Part shown: piece by piece, positions 3,573-22,810 of the stretch | How positions within the stretch are numbered: position 1 is the first letter of the stretch | Layout: each line of letters starts with the position of its first letter | Origin: a phage | Length of the DNA stretch: 64,000 nucleotides | Reading direction: 5' to 3' (one strand) | Sequence record: PX880099.1 | Notes under the pieces: model-generated | The model's input: only the letters and a program-made list of their open reading frames with translations | Databases searched by the model: none | What the model was told of the DNA's origin: nothing | Program-made: the position numbers and the translations under genes

Positions 3573-4082
3573 TTAATAAAAACTCTTGACAATCCTCATC
3601 ATTTCCTTAGCTCTGCTGGCATAAGGTTCTTTTAGATTAGGTGGCAAATGTGCATTAATGTATCCCATTTGTTTTTCCCATGTCCACTTATCTTTAAATC
3701 TTGGCATGGTATCTCCTGCTAAACTGTTTTCTTTTCGTGTTTGAATAATCCAATTACATGGAAAATGCACACCACCTTTACGGAAGGGAATATAATGTCC
3801 CAATGTGAATGCCTTATTGTTCTTTAAACGTCCAGCTAAATTAAGATTAACAATAAGACTACGAAACACATAGTATTGATAAAGATTGTCAACAGTATAT
3901 ACAGAGTAGTATGCTCTAAGTGCATTATCTCTACTAAGATTACCAACATCCAAACTGCACCAGTTTAAATTACTTGGATCATAGTTGTGATTATCAATCC
4001 ATTCTTCTCTTTCCTCAAATTCTGCATTAACAGCAGATTGCCCTGCTGTAGATACAAAAAGAGAATTTGCATCAAAGAACAT
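3573..4082 (-). CDS. hypothetical protein
   Basis: 169 aa ORF, SD AAGGAGGGAG before ATG. Confidence 0.55.
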   Translation of the reverse strand: MFFDANSLFVSTAGQSAVNAEFEEREEWIDNHNYDPSNLNWCSLDVGNLSRDNALRAYYSVYTVDNLYQYYVFRSLIVNLNLAGRLKNNKAFTLGHYIPFRKGGVHFPCNWIIQTRKENSLAGDTMPRFKDKWTWEKQMGYINAHLPPNLKEPYASRAKEMMRIVKSFY

Positions 4083-4092
4083 ACTCCCTCCT

Positions 4093-4446
4093 TTAGTTTA
4101 CATCGTTTAGAGCATTACCAATCTTTAAGATAATAACATCGTTAAGGGCTTCTTCTCCATTAAGGCCAGAGAAAGCAGGAGTAACGAAAGTTACCATATA
4201 ATAATGGTCTTCTTGTAGGATTGCGATAACGCCGTCTAGTTTAACATCTCCTGTGAAACGAAAAACTTTCAACTTTTGTTCTAAAGGAAGATCTCCTTCA
4301 ACATTTAAAACCATATCTCCAACACCAAACTTTTCTGCCCCGATGTAGATGTAAGCTTGGTCCTCTTTTTTATGATAATACAGTGTTGCTTGTTTGTCTT
4401 GTAGTGTTGTGATACCAAACACATCTACATCAATAATATTTTTCAA
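4093..4446 (-). CDS. hypothetical protein (probable TTG start)
   Basis: Track ORF 4093-4503 overlaps upstream gene by 61 nt; GGAGGAG followed by TTG at 4444-4446 gives a TTGA-coupled start. Confidence 0.4.
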   Translation of the reverse strand: MKNIIDVDVFGITTLQDKQATLYYHKKEDQAYIYIGAEKFGVGDMVLNVEGDLPLEQKLKVFRFTGDVKLDGVIAILQEDHYYMVTFVTPAFSGLNGEEALNDVIILKIGNALNDVN

Positions 4447-4811
4447 AAATTCTCCTCCCAAATCCAATAATTGTCTACATAAGTAGGATGCCTTTTGTCC
4501 CACTCTTTTCTAGCCCAAGCCACGGCTGCTATCAATACATCTCCATGACAAGGTTGAGGGGAGCAGAAGCAAACTAAATCTTTCCCTTCTAGCTCTAATA
4601 AATCTTCAAGAGTGATCTTACCACAACGAATTTGCTCCCACAACCACTCTTTATACCTTTGTATAGTTGATCCTCGTGGTTCATCATCTTTTAACTTAAA
4701 AGGGTTTGCAAACTTGGAGGCTTTTAGTCCCATATGTGGCATTGCTCTACCAATATAAACAGCACCTTCTGGGATTGTTTTGCCTAAATGGTAAAAGTTT
4801 AATACCTTCAT
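4443..4811 (-). CDS. DUF4326-family protein
   Basis: 122 aa; VYIGR...ANPF...CFCSPQPCHGDVL pattern typical of DUF4326. Confidence 0.65.
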   Translation of the reverse strand: MKVLNFYHLGKTIPEGAVYIGRAMPHMGLKASKFANPFKLKDDEPRGSTIQRYKEWLWEQIRCGKITLEDLLELEGKDLVCFCSPQPCHGDVLIAAVAWARKEWDKRHPTYVDNYWIWEENF

Positions 4812-4812
4812 A

Positions 4813-5175
4813 TTAACCTAAACACATACGTGCGATCAGACCTTGAATTAGTTTATCTGCTTCTTCTCGATCATAGTCGGTATCTTCTATACCACCATCT
4901 TCGTCACGATAAACTTTACCTTCCAGGTACCCAGCATCGATCAAACCAATAATCAAATCGAACTGCCAACAAGAATTACCGAAAGGACGTTTTCCACTGA
5001 AACTGTCTTCTTCTTCCCAAAGTGTAGAGAGCAGTCGTCTGAAATATTCACGCACAGTAACAGTGCCAAGATCATCGTCTTCAAAAACAACATCTAAAGC
5101 ATCTGGTTCAGCTTTATCTACAACAGGCACATAACGTTGACCATTAATAACAACATCTACAATCGTTTCTCTCAT
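4813..5175 (-). CDS. hypothetical protein
   Basis: 120 aa ORF, SD GAAGGAGG before ATG. Confidence 0.55.
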   Translation of the reverse strand: MRETIVDVVINGQRYVPVVDKAEPDALDVVFEDDDLGTVTVREYFRRLLSTLWEEEDSFSGKRPFGNSCWQFDLIIGLIDAGYLEGKVYRDEDGGIEDTDYDREEADKLIQGLIARMCLG

Positions 5176-5531
5176 TTTTCCTCCTTCTTGTATTCTAAGA
5201 ACATGTCAACTTCATAAGCTGCCCGTTCATTAAATTTACTAGGATCTACTAAAATAAAAAGTTGTTTATTTATATCTTGAAACTCTTTTACTACAATGTA
5301 AAGGTGTTTCTTACAAGAGAAGCCTGTTGCTTGATAAGCATCGCCCCAATCATCCACACCTTTTAATGTTTCTACATACTTACATTTTATTTTATCTTTA
5401 CCGTCTTGGTAAAGTGCTTCACCTCCGAACCATGTGAAGAATTTAGTGCGATCTGCCCCAACCTTAAAGCCGTCACGAGCAAAAACACCAGTAGAGGCTA
5501 ATAACAGCAAGGCAAACAGCACTTTTCTCAT
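5172..5531 (-). CDS. secreted protein with N-terminal signal peptide
   Basis: MRKVLFALLLLASTGVFA signal-like N-terminus; ATG at 5529-5531 with GAGGAG SD (track start is an upstream GTG). Confidence 0.55.
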   Translation of the reverse strand: MRKVLFALLLLASTGVFARDGFKVGADRTKFFTWFGGEALYQDGKDKIKCKYVETLKGVDDWGDAYQATGFSCKKHLYIVVKEFQDINKQLFILVDPSKFNERAAYEVDMFLEYKKEEK

Positions 5532-5839
5532 CACATCTCCTCGTCGGACTTCAAGGCTTTAGAGAATACTACATTAAACATTTCACCGCAACCATTATTA
5601 ACATAATACATGATGTAATTATCATCTTCGTCTACAGGCGCACGATACTCCAATTCATAACTATACAGATTAGAATTACTTGTGCAACCTTGTGGATACC
5701 AAAAGTAAAGTTCACCACAAGATTCTACCCATTTAAGACCAGTCCGATCTTCAAACACCAATGTAGAAGGGTTTTCTGAATCTTTCACAGCTTCTTCATA
5801 CTGTTGATGTACCATAACTGCTAATGATAATGTACTCAT
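5531..5839 (-). CDS. hypothetical protein
   Basis: ORF with GGAGG SD; start re-picked to ATG (MSTLSL). Confidence 0.5.
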   Translation of the reverse strand: MSTLSLAVMVHQQYEEAVKDSENPSTLVFEDRTGLKWVESCGELYFWYPQGCTSNSNLYSYELEYRAPVDEDDNYIMYYVNNGCGEMFNVVFSKALKSDEEM

Positions 5840-6012
5840 CACGCCTCCAAATAGTGTTTACAAATGACAAAACGCCATGTTTGTTTATAATAGTCTCTTT
5901 TTTCAAGAGCCTCTTTGTAAGAGGGTATACGTTGCGACAGAAGCATCCATTCACAATCTGCACCCATTCTTCCATAAAGCGCGTAACGGATGTTACTTTG
6001 TTTATCTCCCAT
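5839..6012 (-). CDS. small hypothetical protein (57 aa)
   Basis: Hand-translated ORF MGDKQSNIRYALYGRMGADCEW..., AAGGAGG SD; below track length cutoff. Confidence 0.4.
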   Translation of the reverse strand: MGDKQSNIRYALYGRMGADCEWMLLSQRIPSYKEALEKRDYYKQTWRFVICKHYLEA

Positions 6013-6055
6013 AAATGCCTCCTTAATCTTGTTTACAAGTATACCCTCTAATTAG

Positions 6056-6253
6056 TTACACTTTTTCCCAAGTACCAAAAGCACAGGAAGGGTAGATTCC
6101 AACTTGAGGGTTTCCGTTATCATCTTTGAAAGTAAAACTGTTGTTGTCTTTATCAAGAACTGTAGAATAAATCTTACCAACAGTAACGCAGTTGGAAGCT
6201 TGACCCAGTTCAGTAAGAGTAAGACATTTCATTTTCTGTTTCTTTGTAGCCAT
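6056..6253 (-). CDS. hypothetical protein
   Basis: 65 aa ORF, SD AAGGAGAC before ATG. Confidence 0.5.
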   Translation of the reverse strand: MATKKQKMKCLTLTELGQASNCVTVGKIYSTVLDKDNNSFTFKDDNGNPQVGIYPSCAFGTWEKV

Positions 6254-6335
6254 TTATAAAGTCTCCTTAGTAAGTGAATCTTTATTCTCCACAAAGAGCT
6301 TTGCACATGTCAAGTAACTCTTTGTGAGATTAATC

Positions 6336-6605
6336 TTAATGATTGATGATGTTGATGACGATCTTAGTTTCAACCTTAGCCCAACAGGAATCTGCTTCAT
6401 TAAAACGACTATTTGCAATGTATTCTCCTGCACGAGAACCTGTTAAGCAAACTGCACCTGTATCTGTAGCTAAGTAGTAGTCCCGTTCTTGTTCATTTAC
6501 TTCTGAGTTGTAGTAATAGAAAACAGACATAGGTTCAATTTCAGATAAACGGTATAACTTTGGAACAGGGGATTTCTCGATAAACTCAACAGAAGTTTTA
6601 CTCAT
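6336..6605 (-). CDS. hypothetical protein
   Basis: 89 aa ORF, SD AGGAGAA. Confidence 0.5.
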   Translation of the reverse strand: MSKTSVEFIEKSPVPKLYRLSEIEPMSVFYYYNSEVNEQERDYYLATDTGAVCLTGSRAGEYIANSRFNEADSCWAKVETKIVINIINH

Positions 6606-6799
6606 TTGTTTTCTCCTAGATCTAAACTAATTAAGAAGTCACGAAGGATGATCATTTGTTCTGTAGACAATGATAATACACCTTCTCCATAAATATCACC
6701 AGACCATTCAGCAGTTAGATCTAGTGTACCAGTACCAGGAAACCAATCAATAGTGATCTGATTACCATTAGAGTCAGGTAGTATTTCACTGACTAACAT
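6602..6799 (-). CDS. hypothetical protein
   Basis: Start re-picked to internal ATG (MLVSEIL) which has a strong SD AATAGGAGAG; track start lacks SD. Confidence 0.45.
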   Translation of the reverse strand: MLVSEILPDSNGNQITIDWFPGTGTLDLTAEWSGDIYGEGVLSLSTEQMIILRDFLISLDLGENK

Positions 6800-6915
6800 A
6801 ACACACTCTCCTATTATTGTTCTTGATCTTACGATCATCTACCGATAAGAACAAGTACTTAAATCTCTGTTCTTCGAACATCTAACGATAGAGATTAATC
6901 TATTACATAATCTAT

Positions 6916-6972
6916 ACTCGCTATCGCTCGACCCTTCGGGGTTAGGGTAGCATATTTTTTGAAAAAAGTCAA
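6916..6972. repeat. conserved 57-bp element, copy 1 (ACTCGCTATCGCTCG - hairpin - TAGGGTAGCATATTTTTTGAAAAAAGTCAA)
   Basis: About 88 percent identical to 43085-43141; internal hairpin ACCC-TTCG-GGGT differs in sequence but not position from copy 2. Confidence 0.6.
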
Positions 6973-7292
6973 CACTTATTTTTGGTAAGTAGATAAATCA
7001 ATTGTTCACCTGCTTCTGGTGCATATAGTGCTTTAGTATCGAAGTCAAAGAAGTGAGTGACTCCTGTTACTTTGGATGCCTGAATAGATAATCGTGCAAG
7101 CTTAAGCAGATTATCCATTTCTGCAATCTTTGCACGAAACACTGCACGTGTAGCGTCAAAAGCTGCATGTGGCATGTATTTACGATTTAGACTACTACGT
7201 TTAAATTTACGATAATCTGCAATGATCTTGTTACGTTCTTTGTTCAAGTGCTTTACCAGTGCAGTGTATACATGTGGTTCTTTGTTAGCCAT
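6969..7292 (-). CDS. hypothetical basic protein
   Basis: Start re-picked to ATG (MANKEPH) preceded by GAGGAG. Confidence 0.5.
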   Translation of the reverse strand: MANKEPHVYTALVKHLNKERNKIIADYRKFKRSSLNRKYMPHAAFDATRAVFRAKIAEMDNLLKLARLSIQASKVTGVTHFFDFDTKALYAPEAGEQLIYLLTKNKC

Positions 7293-7497
7293 TGTTAATC
7301 TCCTCTTCATATGTTGGTAGTGCATGGTATGCGATCACAGGTGCCAAGTCAAAATAAAAATGACCATTGATAACAGCTATCGTGCCATTGCGTGTTTTGT
7401 TAACTTCACAAAATCCCTTCTTGCCGTTTGCCATGATTACAAGCCACTCTCCGATAGGAACATCCTCGGTACCAGATACTTTAATCCATCCACTCAC
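7285..7497 (-). CDS. hypothetical protein (GTG start)
   Basis: 70 aa ORF, AGGGGAAG SD before GTG. Confidence 0.45.
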   Translation of the reverse strand: MSGWIKVSGTEDVPIGEWLVIMANGKKGFCEVNKTRNGTIAVINGHFYFDLAPVIAYHALPTYEEEINNG

Positions 7498-7751
7498 TTT
7501 ACTTCCCCTTTGTAATCGGACACTATACCAGGTCTTACTTTTGCCTTAAGATGTTTCAACTCTACCATAGGAGTTGCCACTTGTATAGGGCTAACTTCAA
7601 CCTTGTAGATAGTATATTCATAAGTCGCATATTTACCGATGGAATGCAAATACTTAATTGCGTGTTCAGGGGAATCTGCTTCAACATACCCTAAATCTTT
7701 CGTAGTACGACCTTCGGTATCGCCTTCAGTGGTTACGTGATAAAGTGTCAT
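7494..7751 (-). CDS. hypothetical protein
   Basis: 85 aa ORF, SD GAAGGAGG. Confidence 0.5.
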   Translation of the reverse strand: MTLYHVTTEGDTEGRTTKDLGYVEADSPEHAIKYLHSIGKYATYEYTIYKVEVSPIQVATPMVELKHLKAKVRPGIVSDYKGEVK

Positions 7752-8071
7752 AAAACCTCCTTCTGGTTGGCTGCTTCAATCATAACGTTAAGAGTCTCCA
7801 TACCGCTTTCAACTGCTTGAGCAATCTCTTGGAACACTGTTTTCTTAAAGATGTATAAAGATCCTGCCTGTAAGCGTTGCACACAGCATAAGAGGGTTTG
7901 GTGATCCATAACAAAGTCTCCATAAGCACAATCAATTTTCCCTGTGATTGGGTTGTCTCGTGAGCGAGGATCGTATTCTAATGTGATATGCGTTACACCA
8001 GGTAAAGTAACAAACTGACAACGGATGTTGACACGTGGTGCAATTGACACGCTAAACAAACTGTTTGACAT
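7748..8071 (-). CDS. hypothetical protein
   Basis: 107 aa ORF, SD GAGGAGG. Confidence 0.5.
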   Translation of the reverse strand: MSNSLFSVSIAPRVNIRCQFVTLPGVTHITLEYDPRSRDNPITGKIDCAYGDFVMDHQTLLCCVQRLQAGSLYIFKKTVFQEIAQAVESGMETLNVMIEAANQKEVL

Positions 8072-8218
8072 TTAAACCTCCTCGTAGTAAGGCAAAGTTT
8101 TGATCAGCTGTTCTGAAGTGCCATTCTCTGTCCATGTAACCCCGTTGTCAAGAGAAACATACCCTTTCTTATCGATAAATTTACGGAGACAACCAGTGAA
8201 CTTGTTTTTGTAGATCAT
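8072..8218 (-). CDS. small hypothetical protein (48 aa)
   Basis: Hand-translated MIYKNKFTGCLRKF..., fills the gap between flanking genes, ATGA overlap. Confidence 0.4.
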   Translation of the reverse strand: MIYKNKFTGCLRKFIDKKGYVSLDNGVTWTENGTSEQLIKTLPYYEEV

Positions 8219-8649
8219 TTCTTCTTTCCTTTCTTTAATTTGTTGTGACCTTTACCCTTATAAAGCTTGTGATTACGAGCAGATGGGTTATTTTGGTTCT
8301 CCAGTCGGCTAACAGGTGTATTCCAAAGATTTCCTGCTACAAAAGATGCTGCCACAAGTTCTTCCAGGTATACAAAATCCAAAGCAGGTATCTTTGTTTC
8401 CCTCATCTTGCGTTCTACATTAGACAACACGCCTTCTTCCTTACTGTCTTCTTTTTCAATTACAGACCAACCCTCTTCCTGCCAAGCTTCCCCTCTGAAC
8501 CAAGTTTCCATGTTATAACCTTGTTCGTCGAGAATAACACCATCTCGCATCTCAAACCATTCACCACCGCAAAAATAACTGTGCTCAACACGTCTACCTT
8601 CCTTCATTGCTTCTTTAGCTTCGGTCCAAGTCAGTTTGATGTTTTGCAT
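8215..8649 (-). CDS. DUF2829-like protein (possible Tad2-type signal-sequestering anti-defence protein) with basic C-terminal tail
   Basis: N-terminal WTEAKEAMKEGRRV...GEW and later EEGWSVIE resemble DUF2829; first gene after the promoter at 8680-8707. Confidence 0.45.
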   Translation of the reverse strand: MQNIKLTWTEAKEAMKEGRRVEHSYFCGGEWFEMRDGVILDEQGYNMETWFRGEAWQEEGWSVIEKEDSKEEGVLSNVERKMRETKIPALDFVYLEELVAASFVAGNLWNTPVSRLENQNNPSARNHKLYKGKGHNKLKKGKKK

Positions 8650-8679
8650 TTGTTTTCTCCTCTTGTTTTGTATGAGTTG

Positions 8680-8707
8680 ATCTTAACAGGACTAAAAAGC
8701 ATGTCAA
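8680..8707 (-). promoter_or_regulatory. sigma70-type promoter for the minus-strand operon (TTGACA-16-TAAGAT)
   Basis: Reverse complement reads TTGACATGCTTTTTAGTCCTGTTAAGAT, same architecture as the PeSL promoters. Confidence 0.45.
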
Positions 8708-8763
8708 TACTTGATCTGAAATTATTTTCAGGTATCATATATGAACATTAACAAGAGAGGTAG

Positions 8764-9057
8764 ATGATGAACATTACTTTAGCAACTAAGAATATTTCTG
8801 AGACAATTAACGGTTTTGGTGTCATTGTAGCCTTACACGGTAACAACGAGAAATGGTTGGCTTCTTTTGAAGAGGATCGTCAGCACAACATTATTTTAGA
8901 TGCTCCTATAAAAGTTATGCATATCGTTGGTGAAAGCAAAGTGCTCACTTCCTCCCGTTCAAAAGAACAAATTACAAATGAATTAGTAAAACTGCTTGAC
9001 AATGTTCTTAACATGTTTGATAATGCACCCATCGATACAAAACGTGTCTTAATGTGA
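8764..9057 (+). CDS. hypothetical protein
   Basis: 97 aa ORF, SD AGAGAGG. Confidence 0.5.
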   Translation: MMNITLATKNISETINGFGVIVALHGNNEKWLASFEEDRQHNIILDAPIKVMHIVGESKVLTSSRSKEQITNELVKLLDNVLNMFDNAPIDTKRVLM

Positions 9058-9069
9058 GAGGAGAACCAA

Positions 9070-9357
9070 ATGTATTATTCACAAAATGAAGTAGCAAACA
9101 TTAAACTGGCAGTTGGCGATCTTATTGTGTCACCTAACTACCATTGGGATAACACAGACTTGGTTGAAGTAGTAACTCATGTTGGGTTTGAGGGTGTTGT
9201 GCTCTACACCCTGGGTGGAGGTGTTGTTGGGGAAATGGAACGTTATACAACGACCAAGAAACTGGTAAGTTCTTATCGTATGTTCTTGCATCAAGGCTCA
9301 GAAGAGTATGCAACCTTCTTGTTGAAATTGGACGCAGATCGGGAGAAGGCACGATGA
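9070..9357 (+). CDS. hypothetical protein
   Basis: 95 aa ORF, SD GAGAGGAG. Confidence 0.5.
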   Translation: MYYSQNEVANIKLAVGDLIVSPNYHWDNTDLVEVVTHVGFEGVVLYTLGGGVVGEMERYTTTKKLVSSYRMFLHQGSEEYATFLLKLDADREKAR

Positions 9358-9710
9358 AAATTGTACACGATGAAATTCAAATAGAAGAAAGTGACCTGAT
9401 GGATTTGGATGCAGCTTTGGGGAAGGTAATCTATGCAGGAATTAAAGCCTTCCGTGAGAAGGCAAACAATAGCACGTTTGTCATGATCCCCACTAAACTG
9501 ATGCGTGTTTTGTATCCAAATAGAAGTGCGCCGTATACAGATGAAGAAGAGGAGACAGGTAGAAGAGAGTGGTTAAATATTTTAGAAAAGATGGAGAATG
9601 CTTTTATTGATAGTGGTAATCCAGAAATCGTGTATACTGAAGATCAAAGGAAGGCACGGTTAGAGGGCCGTCTTTTATTCGCTAGTTATTTTGATAATCT
9701 TTGGAGCTAA
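9354..9710 (+). CDS. hypothetical protein
   Basis: 118 aa ORF, ATGA overlap with upstream stop. Confidence 0.5.
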   Translation: MKIVHDEIQIEESDLMDLDAALGKVIYAGIKAFREKANNSTFVMIPTKLMRVLYPNRSAPYTDEEEETGRREWLNILEKMENAFIDSGNPEIVYTEDQRKARLEGRLLFASYFDNLWS

Positions 9711-9712
9711 AT

Positions 9713-9889
9713 ATGTCTGAATTCTTCACAATGGCTTTCTTAGGGATCTATCTGATTATTAGTGCTGTTGGCTTAATCATGTCTCTAATAGAGGAAATGG
9801 GAATTAAGTGGAATTGTGCATTCGGTATAGCTCTTATGCTCACTCCGGTTTGGATCTACATCTGCAAAGCAGTTGAACTCATTGGTTAA
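9713..9889 (+). CDS. small membrane protein
   Basis: Hydrophobic MSEFFTMAFLGIYLIISAVGLIM...; start re-picked to ATG after GGAG. Confidence 0.45.
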   Translation: MSEFFTMAFLGIYLIISAVGLIMSLIEEMGIKWNCAFGIALMLTPVWIYICKAVELIG

Positions 9890-9899
9890 TGGAGGTAAT

Positions 9900-10238
9900 A
9901 TGTTTAGTAAAGAAATGAGAGAGGTGATCGCTACTCTGGTAGTAGATCATGGTGTTGAAGTTGAGCGTCACGTTTGGAAAGATGAGCCTCCTTTCTTTGA
10001 TTTGGCATCACGGGCTAAAAGTCACATGTATCTCCTTGAAGATGATAAGGATTTTATTCTGCGTATGCGTTATGATCGAGAGTTTAGAATTCCTCTTGAC
10101 ACAGATCCTGATGATGTAGTATTGTGGTTGGCAGAGCATTTCGCATTTAACGCTCTACATGGAAGAAGTTTTGGTAATGAACGTTGGGATACCATTTGTC
10201 GTAAACATAATATTGAACCAGAATACGGGAGTATGTAA
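9900..10238 (+). CDS. hypothetical protein
   Basis: Start re-picked to ATG (MFSKEM) after AATGGAGG. Confidence 0.5.
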   Translation: MFSKEMREVIATLVVDHGVEVERHVWKDEPPFFDLASRAKSHMYLLEDDKDFILRMRYDREFRIPLDTDPDDVVLWLAEHFAFNALHGRSFGNERWDTICRKHNIEPEYGSM

Positions 10239-10489
10239 TGTTAAGTATCAAACCTAAAATGATTACTGAAGATCAAAAAGATTACATTTATAAATGTGGT
10301 CGGGTGTGGAAAGAATACACTAAAGGTAATGAAGTTATTGTAGTTACGGAACATGCTATTTCTTTATCAGATCTTTTTGGTGATTATTTGCAAGTCATTA
10401 AAATTGGTATTGACAGAGGTTTGGTGCAGGTGTTAACATTATCCCAAGTTGAAGCAGAACACTTAGACAAAATCATTGTCGAGTTCTAA
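10238..10489 (+). CDS. hypothetical protein
   Basis: 83 aa ORF, TAATG overlap. Confidence 0.5.
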   Translation: MLSIKPKMITEDQKDYIYKCGRVWKEYTKGNEVIVVTEHAISLSDLFGDYLQVIKIGIDRGLVQVLTLSQVEAEHLDKIIVEF

Positions 10490-10502
10490 GAGGAGAAAGA
10501 AT

Positions 10503-10667
10503 ATGATCTCTTTAGAATCAATAGCTTTTAAGAAGGGGTATACCGCAGGGTTCAAGTTTGGTATGTTTAATAAAGTAAATCCATATTGTCCAATGACACA
10601 CAAAAAGGAATTCGAAGAATGGGAAGATGGATTTTCTAAAGGCTATCAGGCAAAAGGTTGGTTGTAA
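10503..10667 (+). CDS. small hypothetical protein
   Basis: Start re-picked to ATG (MISLES) after AGAGGAGAAAG. Confidence 0.45.
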   Translation: MISLESIAFKKGYTAGFKFGMFNKVNPYCPMTHKKEFEEWEDGFSKGYQAKGWL

Positions 10668-10676
10668 GGAGAGAAT

Positions 10677-10841
10677 ATGATTTTAAACTTCATCATCAAC
10701 TTGTGTTTGACATTGGGGTTACTCTGTGCAATAGTATCCCCTTTGGTTGGTGAATATTGTTCTGAACTGGCGATGTTTATAGTTCTTGGTGCGGCTATTG
10801 CTAATATGTTTGTCGCTGCGATTTGTATGTTGTGGGAATAG
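10677..10841 (+). CDS. small hydrophobic membrane protein (54 aa)
   Basis: Hand-translated MILNFIINLCLTLGLLCAIV..., SD AAGGAGAG. Confidence 0.4.
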   Translation: MILNFIINLCLTLGLLCAIVSPLVGEYCSELAMFIVLGAAIANMFVAAICMLWE

Positions 10842-10852
10842 GAGGGAAGTTT

Positions 10853-11209
10853 ATGAAAAAACTAATCTTAGCCACATTGCTGGCTACCGTAAGCTTCACC
10901 ACTTACGCTCAAAAATTTGTAGCAGTTAAAACAGATATTGGTAAAGATGTTGTGATCACAGGCAACAAGTTTTACTATACACCTGGGAATGGTGTTCTAG
11001 AAGAGTGTAAAGATGTTGAGGCATATACGGGAAAAGAAGATAACACGGAACGTCCTTTTTATTCGATTATAGCTACTTGCAAAAATGAAATAGTAGCTAT
11101 TAAACAATACAAAGATGCCCCTGGAGGAGAATACTTATTAGTCAAGAATATTAAGAGTGAAAAAACTGCAAAGTTTACAGTAATTATTTTAAAAGGAGAA
11201 ACGTTCTAA
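10853..11209 (+). CDS. secreted protein with signal peptide
   Basis: MKKLILATLLATVSFTTYA signal-like N-terminus; SD GGAGGGAAG. Confidence 0.55.
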   Translation: MKKLILATLLATVSFTTYAQKFVAVKTDIGKDVVITGNKFYYTPGNGVLEECKDVEAYTGKEDNTERPFYSIIATCKNEIVAIKQYKDAPGGEYLLVKNIKSEKTAKFTVIILKGETF

Positions 11210-12348
11210 TGAAATACACTATTTTTGGAGATGTAGCTGTTGTAAATAAGGAATATGGCGTTGAAGCTAATAAACTTCCTGCTGGAGTTTGGGTTGTCAA
11301 CTGCGATCCGCACGGTAACTACTCTTTAGTGCGTGGTGAAAGTTTCTCTCTTCCGAACACTCTTTATGGGGAAACTAAAGATCGCGCCGCACATGTTATT
11401 AAAACATTTGCTCGTCGTAGTAAAGAAGGTAAAAATACTGGGGTGTTACTGACAGGGACAAAAGGCAGTGGTAAGACGATGTTAGCTAAACTTATTAGCA
11501 TGTCTCTAATGTCCACAGAAGGTTTAGGTATTCCAACCATTTTGGTTACACAGCCTTACACAGATGCTGGCTTCTTAGAATTTATGAGTAAAATTACAGA
11601 TCGTGCTGTTGTTTTATTTGACGAATTTGATAAAGTGTACGCTAAGAAAGAAGATCAGGAAGCACTGTTGACCTTGTTGGATGGAACAGGAAGTGGGAAT
11701 AAACTTTACATCCTCACTAAAAATAGTGGTTATATCTCGGAATATTTTGTAAACCGTCCTAGTCGTATCTACTACAGTTTCAATTACGATAAACTGTCTA
11801 GTGAAACTATGTTAGATTACTTGGATAAGAACTTGGTAAATAAAAAGCACGTAGATAACTTCCAACGTTTATGGGATGTTAGCACAGAGTTGTCTTTCGA
11901 TGTTATTCAAGGCATTGTAGAAGAATTGAATTTCTATCCAAAAATGACTTTTAAAGAATGTCTTGAAATGATGGGTATTTCTTTAGGGAACGATGCTAAA
12001 TGGAATGTGGCTTCTATCGTAGCTAATGGCAAAACCTTGAAGGTGAATTGGATCAATAACTGGCACGACTTCACCCCTACTAAGTTTTTGTCGGGCGCTT
12101 GTTCCCTGAACATCTATCTACAAAGTTTGAAAGATGATGAAGTGGAAGCAATGGAAACCAACAGTTATGTTATCCTGGATGAAGATGGTGATCCACATAT
12201 TGATCTATGTGCAACGGCTGATGGTCTAACTTGTGATCTGATTGAAGGTGGTAAGATTCTGGTTATGAGCACTACACCAGGAAACACTTTGCGAGTGGTG
12301 CTGGAGCCTGTAACACAACGTTCCACTACACTTGGTAGCGTGTTCTAA
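11209..12348 (+). CDS. AAA-type ATPase
   Basis: 379 aa; Walker A GTKGSGKT, Walker B VVLFDEFDK. Confidence 0.6.
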   Translation: MKYTIFGDVAVVNKEYGVEANKLPAGVWVVNCDPHGNYSLVRGESFSLPNTLYGETKDRAAHVIKTFARRSKEGKNTGVLLTGTKGSGKTMLAKLISMSLMSTEGLGIPTILVTQPYTDAGFLEFMSKITDRAVVLFDEFDKVYAKKEDQEALLTLLDGTGSGNKLYILTKNSGYISEYFVNRPSRIYYSFNYDKLSSETMLDYLDKNLVNKKHVDNFQRLWDVSTELSFDVIQGIVEELNFYPKMTFKECLEMMGISLGNDAKWNVASIVANGKTLKVNWINNWHDFTPTKFLSGACSLNIYLQSLKDDEVEAMETNSYVILDEDGDPHIDLCATADGLTCDLIEGGKILVMSTTPGNTLRVVLEPVTQRSTTLGSVF

Positions 12349-22690: not shown

Positions 22691-22699
22691 GGGGATAAC

Positions 22700-22810
22700 A
22701 TGAATCCAAAAGATATGCAAGCATGGAAAGGGTACGACGATCTAAGCGCCTTGCGCAATAAGTCAAGCCGTAACCTTAGACGGTTGGAAGCAAAGAAAAA
22801 GAAAAAATAG
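22700..22810 (+). CDS. small basic protein (36 aa)
   Basis: Hand-translated MNPKDMQAWKGYDDLSALRNK...KKKKK. Confidence 0.3.
   Translation: MNPKDMQAWKGYDDLSALRNKSSRNLRRLEAKKKKK

Follow-up and report, generated by a model that had tools for sequence, protein, structure and literature searches.

A phAPEC8-like phage protein with a predicted minimal Tad2-fold domain and an essentially phage-specific basic C-terminal tail

Few known phage sponge families are as versatile as Tad2 (SPO1 Gp34.65; PF11195, formerly DUF2829; represented also by AcrIIA7/HgmTad2, ModTad2 and SptTad2). The extended β2-β3 loop that bears helix α2 constitutes the interface of the V-shaped Tad2 dimer (10.1101/2023.05.01.538930), and known signal sponges in general are short proteins with positively charged pockets between the protomers of a homo-oligomer (PMC12265669). 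Tad1, Acb2, Acb4, Sequestin, Lockin and TadIV-1 resemble the protein described here in being short, often early and promoter-proximal, modular and frequently fused (PMC12265669), but they have unrelated folds, positive interface pockets and proven ligands. For its C-terminal tail, the nearest described counterpart is that of SecA (SEC-C, PF02810), which is defined by the signature CXCX8C(H/C) and, as the metal-binding domain of SecA, attaches to ribosomes and to SecB via its positive charge (PMC6620043).

The window analysed here, a stretch of 64,000 nucleotides from a phAPEC8-like E. coli phage, carries a 144-aa open reading frame at 8215..8649 (-) with an ATG start codon and a TGA stop codon at 8215-8217. 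A profile search identified it as a complete member of PHROG 22208 (phrog_22208, residues 1-144, E 1.2e-99), and a 99.9% identical sequence is annotated in Phapecoctavirus genomes as a hypothetical protein. The preliminary description had proposed a gene at 8215-8649 without giving its strand; the open reading frame is real and lies on the minus strand. A Shine-Dalgarno sequence, GAGGAG, can be read at 8657..8662 (-), 7 nt 5' of the ATG, and is kept in both a 73%-identical relative (L004) and Justusliebigvirus muut (L002). Further upstream lies the σ70-type promoter that had been reported for this gene, TTGACA-16-TG-n-TAAGAT at 8680..8707 (-), with the -35 hexamer at 8702-8707, the -10 hexamer at 8680-8685 and a TG two bases ahead of the latter (scan score 10/12). 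By consensus alone the match does not exceed chance, as 26 promoter-like sites occur over 5000..12000 where 21.6 are expected. The -35 hexamer and the 16-nt spacing are identical in L004 and muut, where the -10-like hexamer reads TATGAT and TAATCT, respectively. The position claimed for the gene, first after the promoter, is borne out as well: it heads a leftward run of ~21 genes, the last of which encodes the anaerobic ribonucleotide reductase, and we infer that it is expressed early. At two further related loci, L005 and L006, the gene for the N-terminal domain is second in the operon, not first.

The N-terminal domain of the protein is matched by phrog_3474 over residues 4-65 (E 2.1e-30). 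With the 144-aa protein, a Pfam hmmscan returned no family, PF11195 included, even at E≤10; NCBIfam and PADLOC searches with the whole protein gave no match, and phmmer and hmmsearch comparisons with PDB sequences, including one with the family profile, gave chance matches only and no Tad2 chain. Among 147 family relatives, 20 weakly touch PF11195 (best E 2.9e-4), and apart from PF11195 and SEC-C no Pfam family recurs. Structure prediction nevertheless yields a Tad2 fold. The AlphaFold2 model of the domain (pLDDT 86.7) has the N-terminal helix α1 packed on an antiparallel β-sheet, and its top 12 Foldseek matches in the PDB are all Tad2 (TM 0.66); the full-length model (pLDDT 61) is of insufficient quality for such a comparison, and with it Tad2 again ranks top but only at E 0.8 and TM 0.27. 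Profile-profile homology is detectable too. An hhalign comparison of a 99-sequence family alignment with 14 tested Tad2 proteins (Table S2, 10.1101/2025.08.24.671296) gave a probability of 93.4% and E 2.4e-7 over 35 columns, and relaxed settings gave 90-94% over 60 columns, end to end. We therefore conclude that residues ~5-65 (8455..8637 (-); helix 8-16 and strands 20-23, 32-35, 38-41 and 61-64) adopt a minimal Tad2 fold and are a remote homologue of DUF2829/Tad2. Of the DUF2829 pattern seen by the preliminary description in the N-terminus, the fold and the remote homology thus stand over the first ~65 residues, while membership of PF11195 does not.

The domain shares with Tad2 an N-terminal pattern, in which a helix is followed by G-K-K-V, a basic residue, x and an aromatic. 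Like Tad2 it has aromatics where the two main contacts with the ligand are made, and it occurs in a small phage protein encoded in an accessory-gene region. It is ~25 residues shorter because the β2-β3 loop with α2 is missing: the end-to-end hhalign alignment has a 25-residue query gap here, and the model shows just a tight hairpin at residues 36-37. We compared the Tad2 residues that contact gcADPR (W25, N26, W73 and D79 in SPO1 numbering). W25 aligns with F26, which is F or Y in 99/99 family sequences, and W73 aligns with W50, a position that is F or W in 82/99 and lies in the C-terminal half of the alignment, which is of low confidence; position 51 is aromatic (W, F or Y) in 87/99. C27 stands opposite N26, at a position that is T, S, C or A in the family, and D79, in the same low-confidence half, aligns with the variable A55; neither polar contact persists in this alignment. 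With the α2 loop deleted and the equivalents of N26 and D79 unconserved, the protein may thus be unable to build a Tad2-type tetramer with pockets at its interfaces. The Tad2 motif 'R-x-G-W-N-G-K-G' becomes 'H-x-Y-F-x-x-x-E' in the family, whose own near-invariant residues are H23 (90/99), E30 (97/99) and E42 (92/99). The 62-aa domain is acidic (pI 4.66, 14 D/E against 8 K/R), and it is followed by ~80 residues made up of linker plus basic tail, an extension that no characterised Tad2 possesses.

The family to which the domain belongs (PHROG 3474/22208) is distinct, minimal, below Pfam detection and widespread in virulent enterobacterial phages, with 483 phage records that span T5-like, T4-like, Felix O1-like, rV5-like and phAPEC8-like phages. 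A word-indexed homologue search with the N-terminal domain alone returned one fragment. Two giant matches from the representative search (P0053 and P0161) were dropped, being repeat proteins that match by composition or through Tudor-like repeats. No fusions to Acb4, Sequestin or Tad2 domains occur among the 147 relatives, and the 64-kb window holds neither a paralogue of the N-terminal domain nor a canonical Tad2 elsewhere.

Between the two ends of the protein, residues 66-90 (8380..8454 (-)) form a linker, acidic or of mixed charge, whose length varies. The alignments show indels and little conservation here, and the full-length model has a pLDDT below 50 over residues 67-88. The flexible linker contains one short conserved helix, at residues 91-107 (8329..8379 (-)), which is the second conserved element of the protein. 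Its motif, D-[FY]-x-x-L-E-x-x-V-A-A, is apparent from alignment and model; across all tail-bearing relatives, even those of 35-45% identity, L95 and E96 never vary and D91 hardly does, and the full-length model places the helix, with low confidence, at residues 92-104.

The preliminary description had correctly noted an extension with a lysine-rich tail, but it missed that no other part of the protein, the N-terminal domain included, is as conserved or as unusual as this tail. The tail (residues 126-144, 8218..8274 (-)) reads N-H-K-L-Y-K-G-K-G-H-N-K-L-K-K-G-K-K-K, with the consensus KLxKG[KR]GHNKL[KQ]K+KKK; of its 19 residues, 9 are K/R and none is acidic (pI 10.6), and all are invariant in 18/18 phapecoctavirus homologues. 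Compared with L004, its 19 codons have 0 non-synonymous and 4 synonymous changes, against 16 and 11, respectively, in the N-terminal domain. By these codon changes, no part of the protein is under stronger purifying selection than the tail.

We observed C-termini with this motif in three otherwise unrelated phage families, PHROG 22208, 27594 and 21279, the latter two in Vequintavirinae, with one copy per genome. The uncharacterised proteins of PHROG 27594 and PHROG 21279 (e.g. the 102-aa protein of Klebsiella phage KNP2 and Cronobacter phage CR8_104) end in [DE]-[YW]-x3-[KR]-[LI]-x-[KR]-G-[KR]-G-H-N-K-[LF]-K-[KR]-basic, and hhalign of the C-terminal modules in this comparison gave a probability of 97%, the confident alignment being confined to the last ~20 residues. 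Their N-termini are wholly unlike that of the present protein: some are coiled, others are regions of 330 aa that include a V-V-L-G-C-G-like stretch, and none has a Tad2 fold. In an Erwinia tail-bearing protein, the 'VVLGCG' stretch weakly resembles methyltransferase motif I (E 0.024). A word-indexed search with the tail region found three fragments, all of the same family, and one degenerate DNA pattern for the tail hit only one contig, a consequence of codon choice. Across 596 Gb of genomes from bacteria and archaea there were 10 pattern matches, of which one, on a 541-bp phage-like contig, is real; mimicry of a host sequence was rejected on this ground, and the tail is essentially phage-specific. 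Its distribution marks the tail as a portable module that is passed among unrelated phage proteins. In KNP2, the gene for the N-terminal domain and the tail-bearing gene are separate, ~0.8 kb apart in one operon. We set aside the Rosetta-stone idea that the tail binds the N-terminal domain, since such proximity is seen in KNP2 only and not in other Vequintavirinae.

Where the tail sits in the present protein, four relatives of the N-terminal domain (P0096, P0103, P0120 and P0125) carry a true SEC-C motif, and four others (P0051, P0061, P0093 and P0104) carry different basic tails. As in SecA, the globular part is followed by a flexible linker that leads to a short, positive C-terminal motif. 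The tail has no metal ligands, however: it contains zero cysteines, lacks the SEC-C signature and does not match Pfam PF02810. The similarity is in position and charge only. We use the SEC-C parallel for its role as an analogy.

Given the fold and the remote homology, the retention of W25 and W73 as F26 and W50, and the great functional diversity of the Tad2 family (10.1101/2025.08.24.671296), the protein might be thought a canonical Tad2, that is, a homotetrameric DUF2829 protein able to sequester 1''-3' gcADPR and to block type I Thoeris. We consider this very unlikely, as PF11195 is unmatched, the Tad2 HMM scores just 8.2 bits, the α2 loop is deleted, N26 and D79 are unconserved, and the family has near-invariant residues of its own. 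Because there is no PF11195 match and no α2 loop, N26 and D79 are not conserved, and the domain is acidic where known sponges have positive pockets, sequestration of cADPR-type signals, which the preliminary description had suggested, is treated here as a hypothesis, if a plausible one. Loss of the dimerisation loop, and the presence of invariant glutamates in an acidic domain in place of a basic pocket, would also suit a host-takeover adaptor. In such an adaptor the Tad2-fold domain would contact a protein of host or phage and the tail would bind nucleic acid or the ribosome, so that a host machine is redirected or inhibited early without sequestration of a small molecule. The N-terminal domain is highly modular, being fused to many unrelated C-terminal regions and to SEC-C; in phage muut its fusion partner is a homologue of the window's open reading frame at 9873..10238. 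The tail, the best-conserved part, is common to proteins of 102 to 399 aa without a Tad2 domain. Yet every relative of the fold with a solved structure is a small-molecule sponge, aromatics are kept at both Tad2 pocket positions, and stand-alone proteins of 60-70 aa, like the known sponges, make up most of the family. On balance we regard an adaptor as somewhat unlikely.

Two other explanations concern the tail itself. A 48-aa open reading frame downstream (8072..8218 (-)) begins at an ATG that shares bases with the stop codon (ATGA), and its likely ribosome-binding site, a plausible Shine-Dalgarno sequence, falls in the final codons of the tail (AAAGGAAAGAAGAAATGA); by its arrangement it is translationally coupled to the 144-aa frame, and the same small gene lies 3' of the N-terminal-domain gene in L005 and L006. 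The extension could then be a by-product, the tail being kept solely for this ribosome-binding site and overlapping start, and the linker being functionless. But L005 and L006 differ in codon choice and keep the amino acids, the changes relative to L004 are four synonymous and zero non-synonymous, conservation reaches at least 14 residues upstream of any ribosome-binding site, and proteins whose downstream genes differ end in this peptide too. Codon choice and the synonymous and non-synonymous counts largely refute the by-product explanation, to which we give almost no credence. The tail might instead serve turnover or regulation, as a degron for a host AAA+ protease (ClpXP or Lon) or as an autoinhibitory peptide that folds onto the acidic N-terminal domain, limiting activity to a short time window. 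It lies at the extreme C-terminus, is predicted to be disordered and is sequence-specific (G-H-N-K-L is invariant); its charge is opposite to that of the N-terminal domain; and the fusion here of genes that are separate in the KNP2 operon hints at a functional link. To our knowledge, the tail matches no known degron. Such a tag is improbable, since the tail-bearing gene of Erwinia, Certrevirus and SSBI34 phages has no gene for the N-terminal domain within 3 kb, and since the N-terminal domain family is far commoner than the tail.

Our own reading, which we offer tentatively, is that the protein is a promoter-proximal Tad2-fold binding module that is tethered by its basic tail to a polyanionic host structure. 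It would be transcribed from the conserved σ70 promoter soon after infection. The N-terminal domain would act as a small binding module, with a pocket at the same sheet edge that accommodates gcADPR in Tad2; this pocket would be lined by the retained aromatics F26 and W50 together with the family-specific H23, E30 and E42, the clustering of these five residues having been deduced from strand topology. The ligand would most likely be nucleotide-derived or another small host signal, unlike the known Tad2 ligands. The disordered basic tail may tether the module to the ribosome or other RNA, to DNA, to an anionic membrane or to an acidic chaperone such as SecB, and would in this way concentrate it at the place of need. 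A more specific version, which we hold with low confidence, is that the tail is a so far unrecognised portable targeting signal of phAPEC8-like and rV5-like phages that directs a variety of early proteins to a single specific host structure (e.g. the ribosome), converging functionally with SEC-C; in phapecoctaviruses it would localise a minimal Tad2-fold ligand-binding domain, making this a spatially targeted sponge or inhibitor and not a freely diffusing one. With its Tad2-type fold joined to such a tail, the protein is a good candidate for a counter-defence or host-takeover factor.

A Tad2 relative invisible to Pfam would widen the searchable space of anti-defence proteins, including that in phages that are therapeutic candidates, and the N-terminal domain may point to a new ligand because its pocket chemistry (His/Glu/Glu plus aromatics) differs. 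If the tail is a targeting signal, it would offer a handle on a host structure that is addressed early in infection, as well as a simple tool in the form of a peptide that can be fused to a reporter. Even if neither idea holds, the annotation is corrected: the protein is neither a 'tRNA methyltransferase', an annotation in phAPEC8_ev052 that we found to be unsupported and of which the weak 'VVLGCG' resemblance in the Erwinia protein is the sole trace, nor a canonical DUF2829 protein.

Other identities were considered and rejected. Atd1, the phapecoctavirus anti-TIR gene, encodes a MazG-like enzyme and is not the open reading frame at 8215..8649, and TadIV-1 (T4 vs.3) belongs to an unrelated family found in Straboviridae only. 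A link to an AAA ATPase was likewise dropped, as there is no detectable relationship between the ATPase in the window and the MoxR-like ATPase beside the Vequintavirinae homologues. The gene neighbours are small DUFs throughout. Some homologues lie in the T5-like terminal region, adjoining a gene annotated as the nicking endonuclease for the abasic sites that host Ung leaves behind, and others lie in the T4-like nrd-gp55 small-ORF region.

The 144-residue protein encoded at 8215..8649 on the minus strand had been proposed to be a DUF2829/Tad2-like sponge for immune signals. Formal membership of DUF2829 fails: a Pfam hmmscan of the protein gave no match even at E ≤ 10, NCBIfam and PADLOC returned none, and sequence searches of the PDB with the protein and its family profile found no Tad2 chain. 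Its PHROG matches, phrog_22208 over the full length (1e-99) and phrog_3474 over residues 4-65 (2e-30), are both uncharacterised. HMMER, run exhaustively over 1.84 billion representative proteins, yielded 173 relatives at E ≤ 1e-3, nearly all of which align only to profile positions ~5-65 (the N-domain), the majority being stand-alone proteins of 60-70 residues. Scanned one by one, 20 of 147 relatives matched PF11195 (DUF2829) weakly (best E 2.9e-4), and SEC-C was the sole other recurring family. Against 14 Tad2 proteins that had been tested by experiment (Table S2 of 10.1101/2025.08.24.671296), hhalign gave a 99-sequence alignment of the N-domain family a probability of 93.4% over the helix and first hairpin and, under relaxed settings, of 90-94% in an end-to-end match of 60 columns. 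A template-free AlphaFold2 model of residues 1-70 from the 99-sequence alignment has a pLDDT of 86.7 and a pTM of 0.70. The Tad2 structures date from 2023-2025, later than the AlphaFold2 weights. Foldseek against the PDB placed Tad2 chains (SPO1, ModTad2, SptTad2) at all of ranks 1-12, the best with a TM of 0.66/0.61 and probability 0.99 but an E-value of only 0.19, and the next fold at a TM of 0.40. Because the weak PF11195 matches, hhalign and AlphaFold2/Foldseek agree, we consider the fold assignment, which bears out the N-terminal Tad2 fold suggested earlier, to be solid: the N-domain is a remote, minimal Tad2 relative. One relative, P0046 (175 residues), carries the Tad2-fold domain duplicated in tandem. 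The weak tail of profile matches is not clean, since the giant proteins P0053 and P0161 (2489 and 2128 residues) are false positives that scored through many short repeats, Tudor-like (GDRVEARFKGG...) in one and D/G/K-rich in the other.

The domain nevertheless differs from Tad2 where Tad2 binds and assembles. In the end-to-end alignment a 25-residue deletion falls exactly at the Tad2 β2-β3 loop, which carries helix α2 and makes the V-shaped dimer interface. Of the chief gcADPR contacts in SPO1 Tad2 (W25, N26, W73 and D79), W25 aligns with F26 here (F or Y in 99/99 family sequences), W73 with W50 (F or W in 82/99), N26 with C27 (T, S, C or A in the family) and D79 with A55, a variable position. 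Conversely, the near-invariant H23 (90/99), E30 (97/99) and E42 (92/99) are without Tad2 counterpart; from strand order and topology we deduce that they lie at the same sheet edge as the β1-β2 loop, the site of the Tad2 pocket. A11, G18, G44 and W61 are also near-invariant. Known sponges have positively charged interface pockets in common (PMC12265669), while the N-domain is acidic (pI 4.66). Given the loop deletion, the residue changes and this acidity, a binding pocket may be kept with changed chemistry, and a Tad2-type tetramer cannot be assumed.

The extension with its lysine-rich tail, also described previously, is present and is conserved in a manner opposite to model confidence. Only the N-domain is confident in the full-length model, which beyond it shows two tentative helices (72-84, 92-104) before the chain becomes disordered; yet invariant positions among 18 homologues lie mostly in the C-terminal third, where K-G-x-G-H-N-K-L-K-K-G-K-K-K is identical in 18/18 (one with N at x). 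Relatives with only 35-45% identity in the N-domain still keep D-[FY]-x-x-L-E (L95 and E96 invariant) and a tail K-[LI]-x-K-G-[KR]-G-H-N-[KR]-L-[KQ]-K-[RG]-K-K-K. Compared with its 73%-identical IMG/VR relative, the gene has 0 non-synonymous and 4 synonymous changes in the 19 tail codons, against 16 and 11 in the N-domain and 19 and 12 in the middle region; at another homologue locus (L005) and in Klebsiella phage KNP2 (L006), tail codons have changed and the peptide has not. Since the changes are synonymous and different codons encode the same peptide, we read the constraint on the tail as acting on the protein, beyond the ribosome-binding site of the next gene that overlaps it. The downstream 48-residue ORF has its ATG overlapping the stop codon (ATGA), but the same codon changes largely exclude that the extension is kept only for translational coupling, to which we assign a negligible likelihood. 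A putative gene at 22691..22810 on the plus strand also has a lysine-rich C-terminus (...NLRRLEAKKKKK), without the G-H-N-K-L core.

The tail is portable. In KNP2 the Tad2-fold domain is a gene of its own (~61 residues), and four genes downstream a 102-residue protein (4958..5266; phrog_27594, 8e-69) ends ...DVDYAKFKIVKGRGHNKLKKKKKKKK. Other bearers are a 183-residue protein of Erwinia phage pEp_SNUABM_01 (2503..3054), the 399-residue Certrevirus proteins CR8_104/POP15_120, whose C-terminal end is related to phrog_21279, and a 327-residue protein of Salmonella phage SSBI34. The Vequintavirinae tail loci, namely those of KNP2 and pEp_SNUABM_01 with L010 1873..3072, L011 2089..3072 and L012 1876..3072, encode proteins of 102 to 399 residues (PHROGs 27594 and 21279) sharing a basic terminal motif K-G-[KR]-G-H-N-K-[LF]. 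An hhalign comparison of the C-terminal modules gave 97% probability, with confident columns in the last ~20 residues only. By tblastn there is one tail per genome, in 71 phapecoctavirus-type and 38 Vequintavirinae-type records, and the 64-kb window has a single copy. Because the sole true match among 10 pattern matches in 596 Gb of bacterial and archaeal genomes was a 541-bp phage-like contig, the motif is phage-specific and copies no host protein. It is the most distinctive feature of the protein, and was underrated in the preliminary description. In the Vequintavirinae proteins a V-V-L-G-C-G / V-A-I-V-G-G-G-G stretch ~40-60 residues before the tail is similar to motif I of methyltransferases or to a glycine loop of Rossmann type; Pfam gives no more than a weak MTS match (E 0.024) for these proteins. 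About 1 kb downstream of the pEp_SNUABM_01 gene, a 169-residue ORF (3995..4504) looks, by eye only, like a putative macro (ADP-ribose-binding or hydrolysing) domain protein.

Four N-domain relatives (P0096, P0103, P0120 and P0125) terminate in a true SEC-C motif of the SecA type (zinc/iron-binding), and P0051, P0061, P0093 and P0104 have other basic C-terminal tails. SecA itself carries its metal-binding domain at the C-terminus on a flexible linker, and this positively charged module binds SecB and the surface of the ribosome (PMC6620043). The parallel with these relatives and with SecA suggests that the tail may anchor the protein to a polyanionic host structure.

We thus observe a minimal Tad2-fold domain, a conserved linker helix and a strongly constrained, portable, phage-specific basic tail, behind a conserved sigma-70-type promoter. 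We tentatively favour, at somewhat below even probability, the hypothesis that the N-domain would be a sponge-like, ligand-binding module of changed specificity which the tail would tether to a polyanionic host structure. That the protein is instead a host-takeover adaptor and no sponge we find somewhat less probable; that the tail is a degron or autoinhibitor is improbable, and a canonical gcADPR-binding Tad2 is a shade less probable again. The earlier observation is therefore confirmed, and its interpretation finds partial support: the fold was right, DUF2829 membership was not, and sponge activity is hypothetical. Identity with Atd1, a MazG-like enzyme, or with TadIV-1, which is T4 vs.3, is ruled out. 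We regard the protein as a worthwhile experimental lead.

By tblastn the N-domain occurs in 483 phage records, annotated in every one as hypothetical protein, which include Klebsiella, Escherichia and Salmonella phages of Stephanstirmvirinae, Vequintavirinae, T4-like, Felix O1-like and T5-like types. In T5-like phage SH9 the end of the genome is 1.5 kb away from its gene, presumably in the T5 pre-early region, and one member of the surrounding small-gene block is annotated as an endonuclease nicking the abasic sites that host Ung produces; in T4-like phage Moon it is found with the small ORFs that separate the nrd genes from gene 55. Distribution and gene context fit an accessory, host-directed role. 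In Justusliebigvirus muut (NC_052657.1, 3001..3552) the Tad2-fold domain is joined to a homologue of the window ORF 9873..10238 (plus strand, 121 residues) in place of the tail; as the junction falls directly after the domain, comparison with the window shows that recombination has taken place at the edge of the domain, downstream of the same conserved promoter.

The window comes from the genome of a Phapecoctavirus (phAPEC8/ESCO13-like) and is 99.9% identical over 7000-10000 to several such phages. For the full 144-residue gene, the identical copy in phAPEC8_ev052 (LR597654.1, 9216..9650) is labelled 'tRNA methyltransferase', a name that no profile library supports and that the other listed annotated records, all hypothetical protein, do not share. 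The promoter reported upstream is present on the minus strand (TTGACA at 8707-8702, then 16 nt of spacer and a TG-n-TAAGAT whose last base is 8680), and the ATG follows a GAGGAG Shine-Dalgarno sequence by 7 nt. The match by itself is no proof, since consensus-like sites in the region (26) are about as numerous as in shuffled sequence (21.6 ± 4.1); orthologue upstream regions do keep the -35 hexamer, the 16-nt spacing and a -10-like hexamer (TATGAT in the 73%-identical phage, TAATCT in muut). The gene also proved to be the first after the promoter, heading in phAPEC8_ev052 a leftward run of ~21 genes that ends with class III ribonucleotide reductase, while a rightward block of small genes diverges from it; at L005 and in KNP2 one other gene precedes the N-domain gene in its operon. 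We infer that early expression is plausible; a search for transcriptomes of this group of phages gave none. Neighbouring small genes at 7748..8071 (minus), 8764..9057 and 9070..9357 (both plus) belong to recently defined Pfam families (DUF7247, DUF7325, phage Tudor domain) whose function is not known. Since two weaker plus-strand promoter-like sites within 8683..8738 (TTAACA-17-AATACT and TTGATC-16-TATCAT) point toward the genes that run rightward from 8764, the 114-bp spacer has the look of a divergent promoter region; relatives keep the sequence around ATTTCAGATCAAGT.
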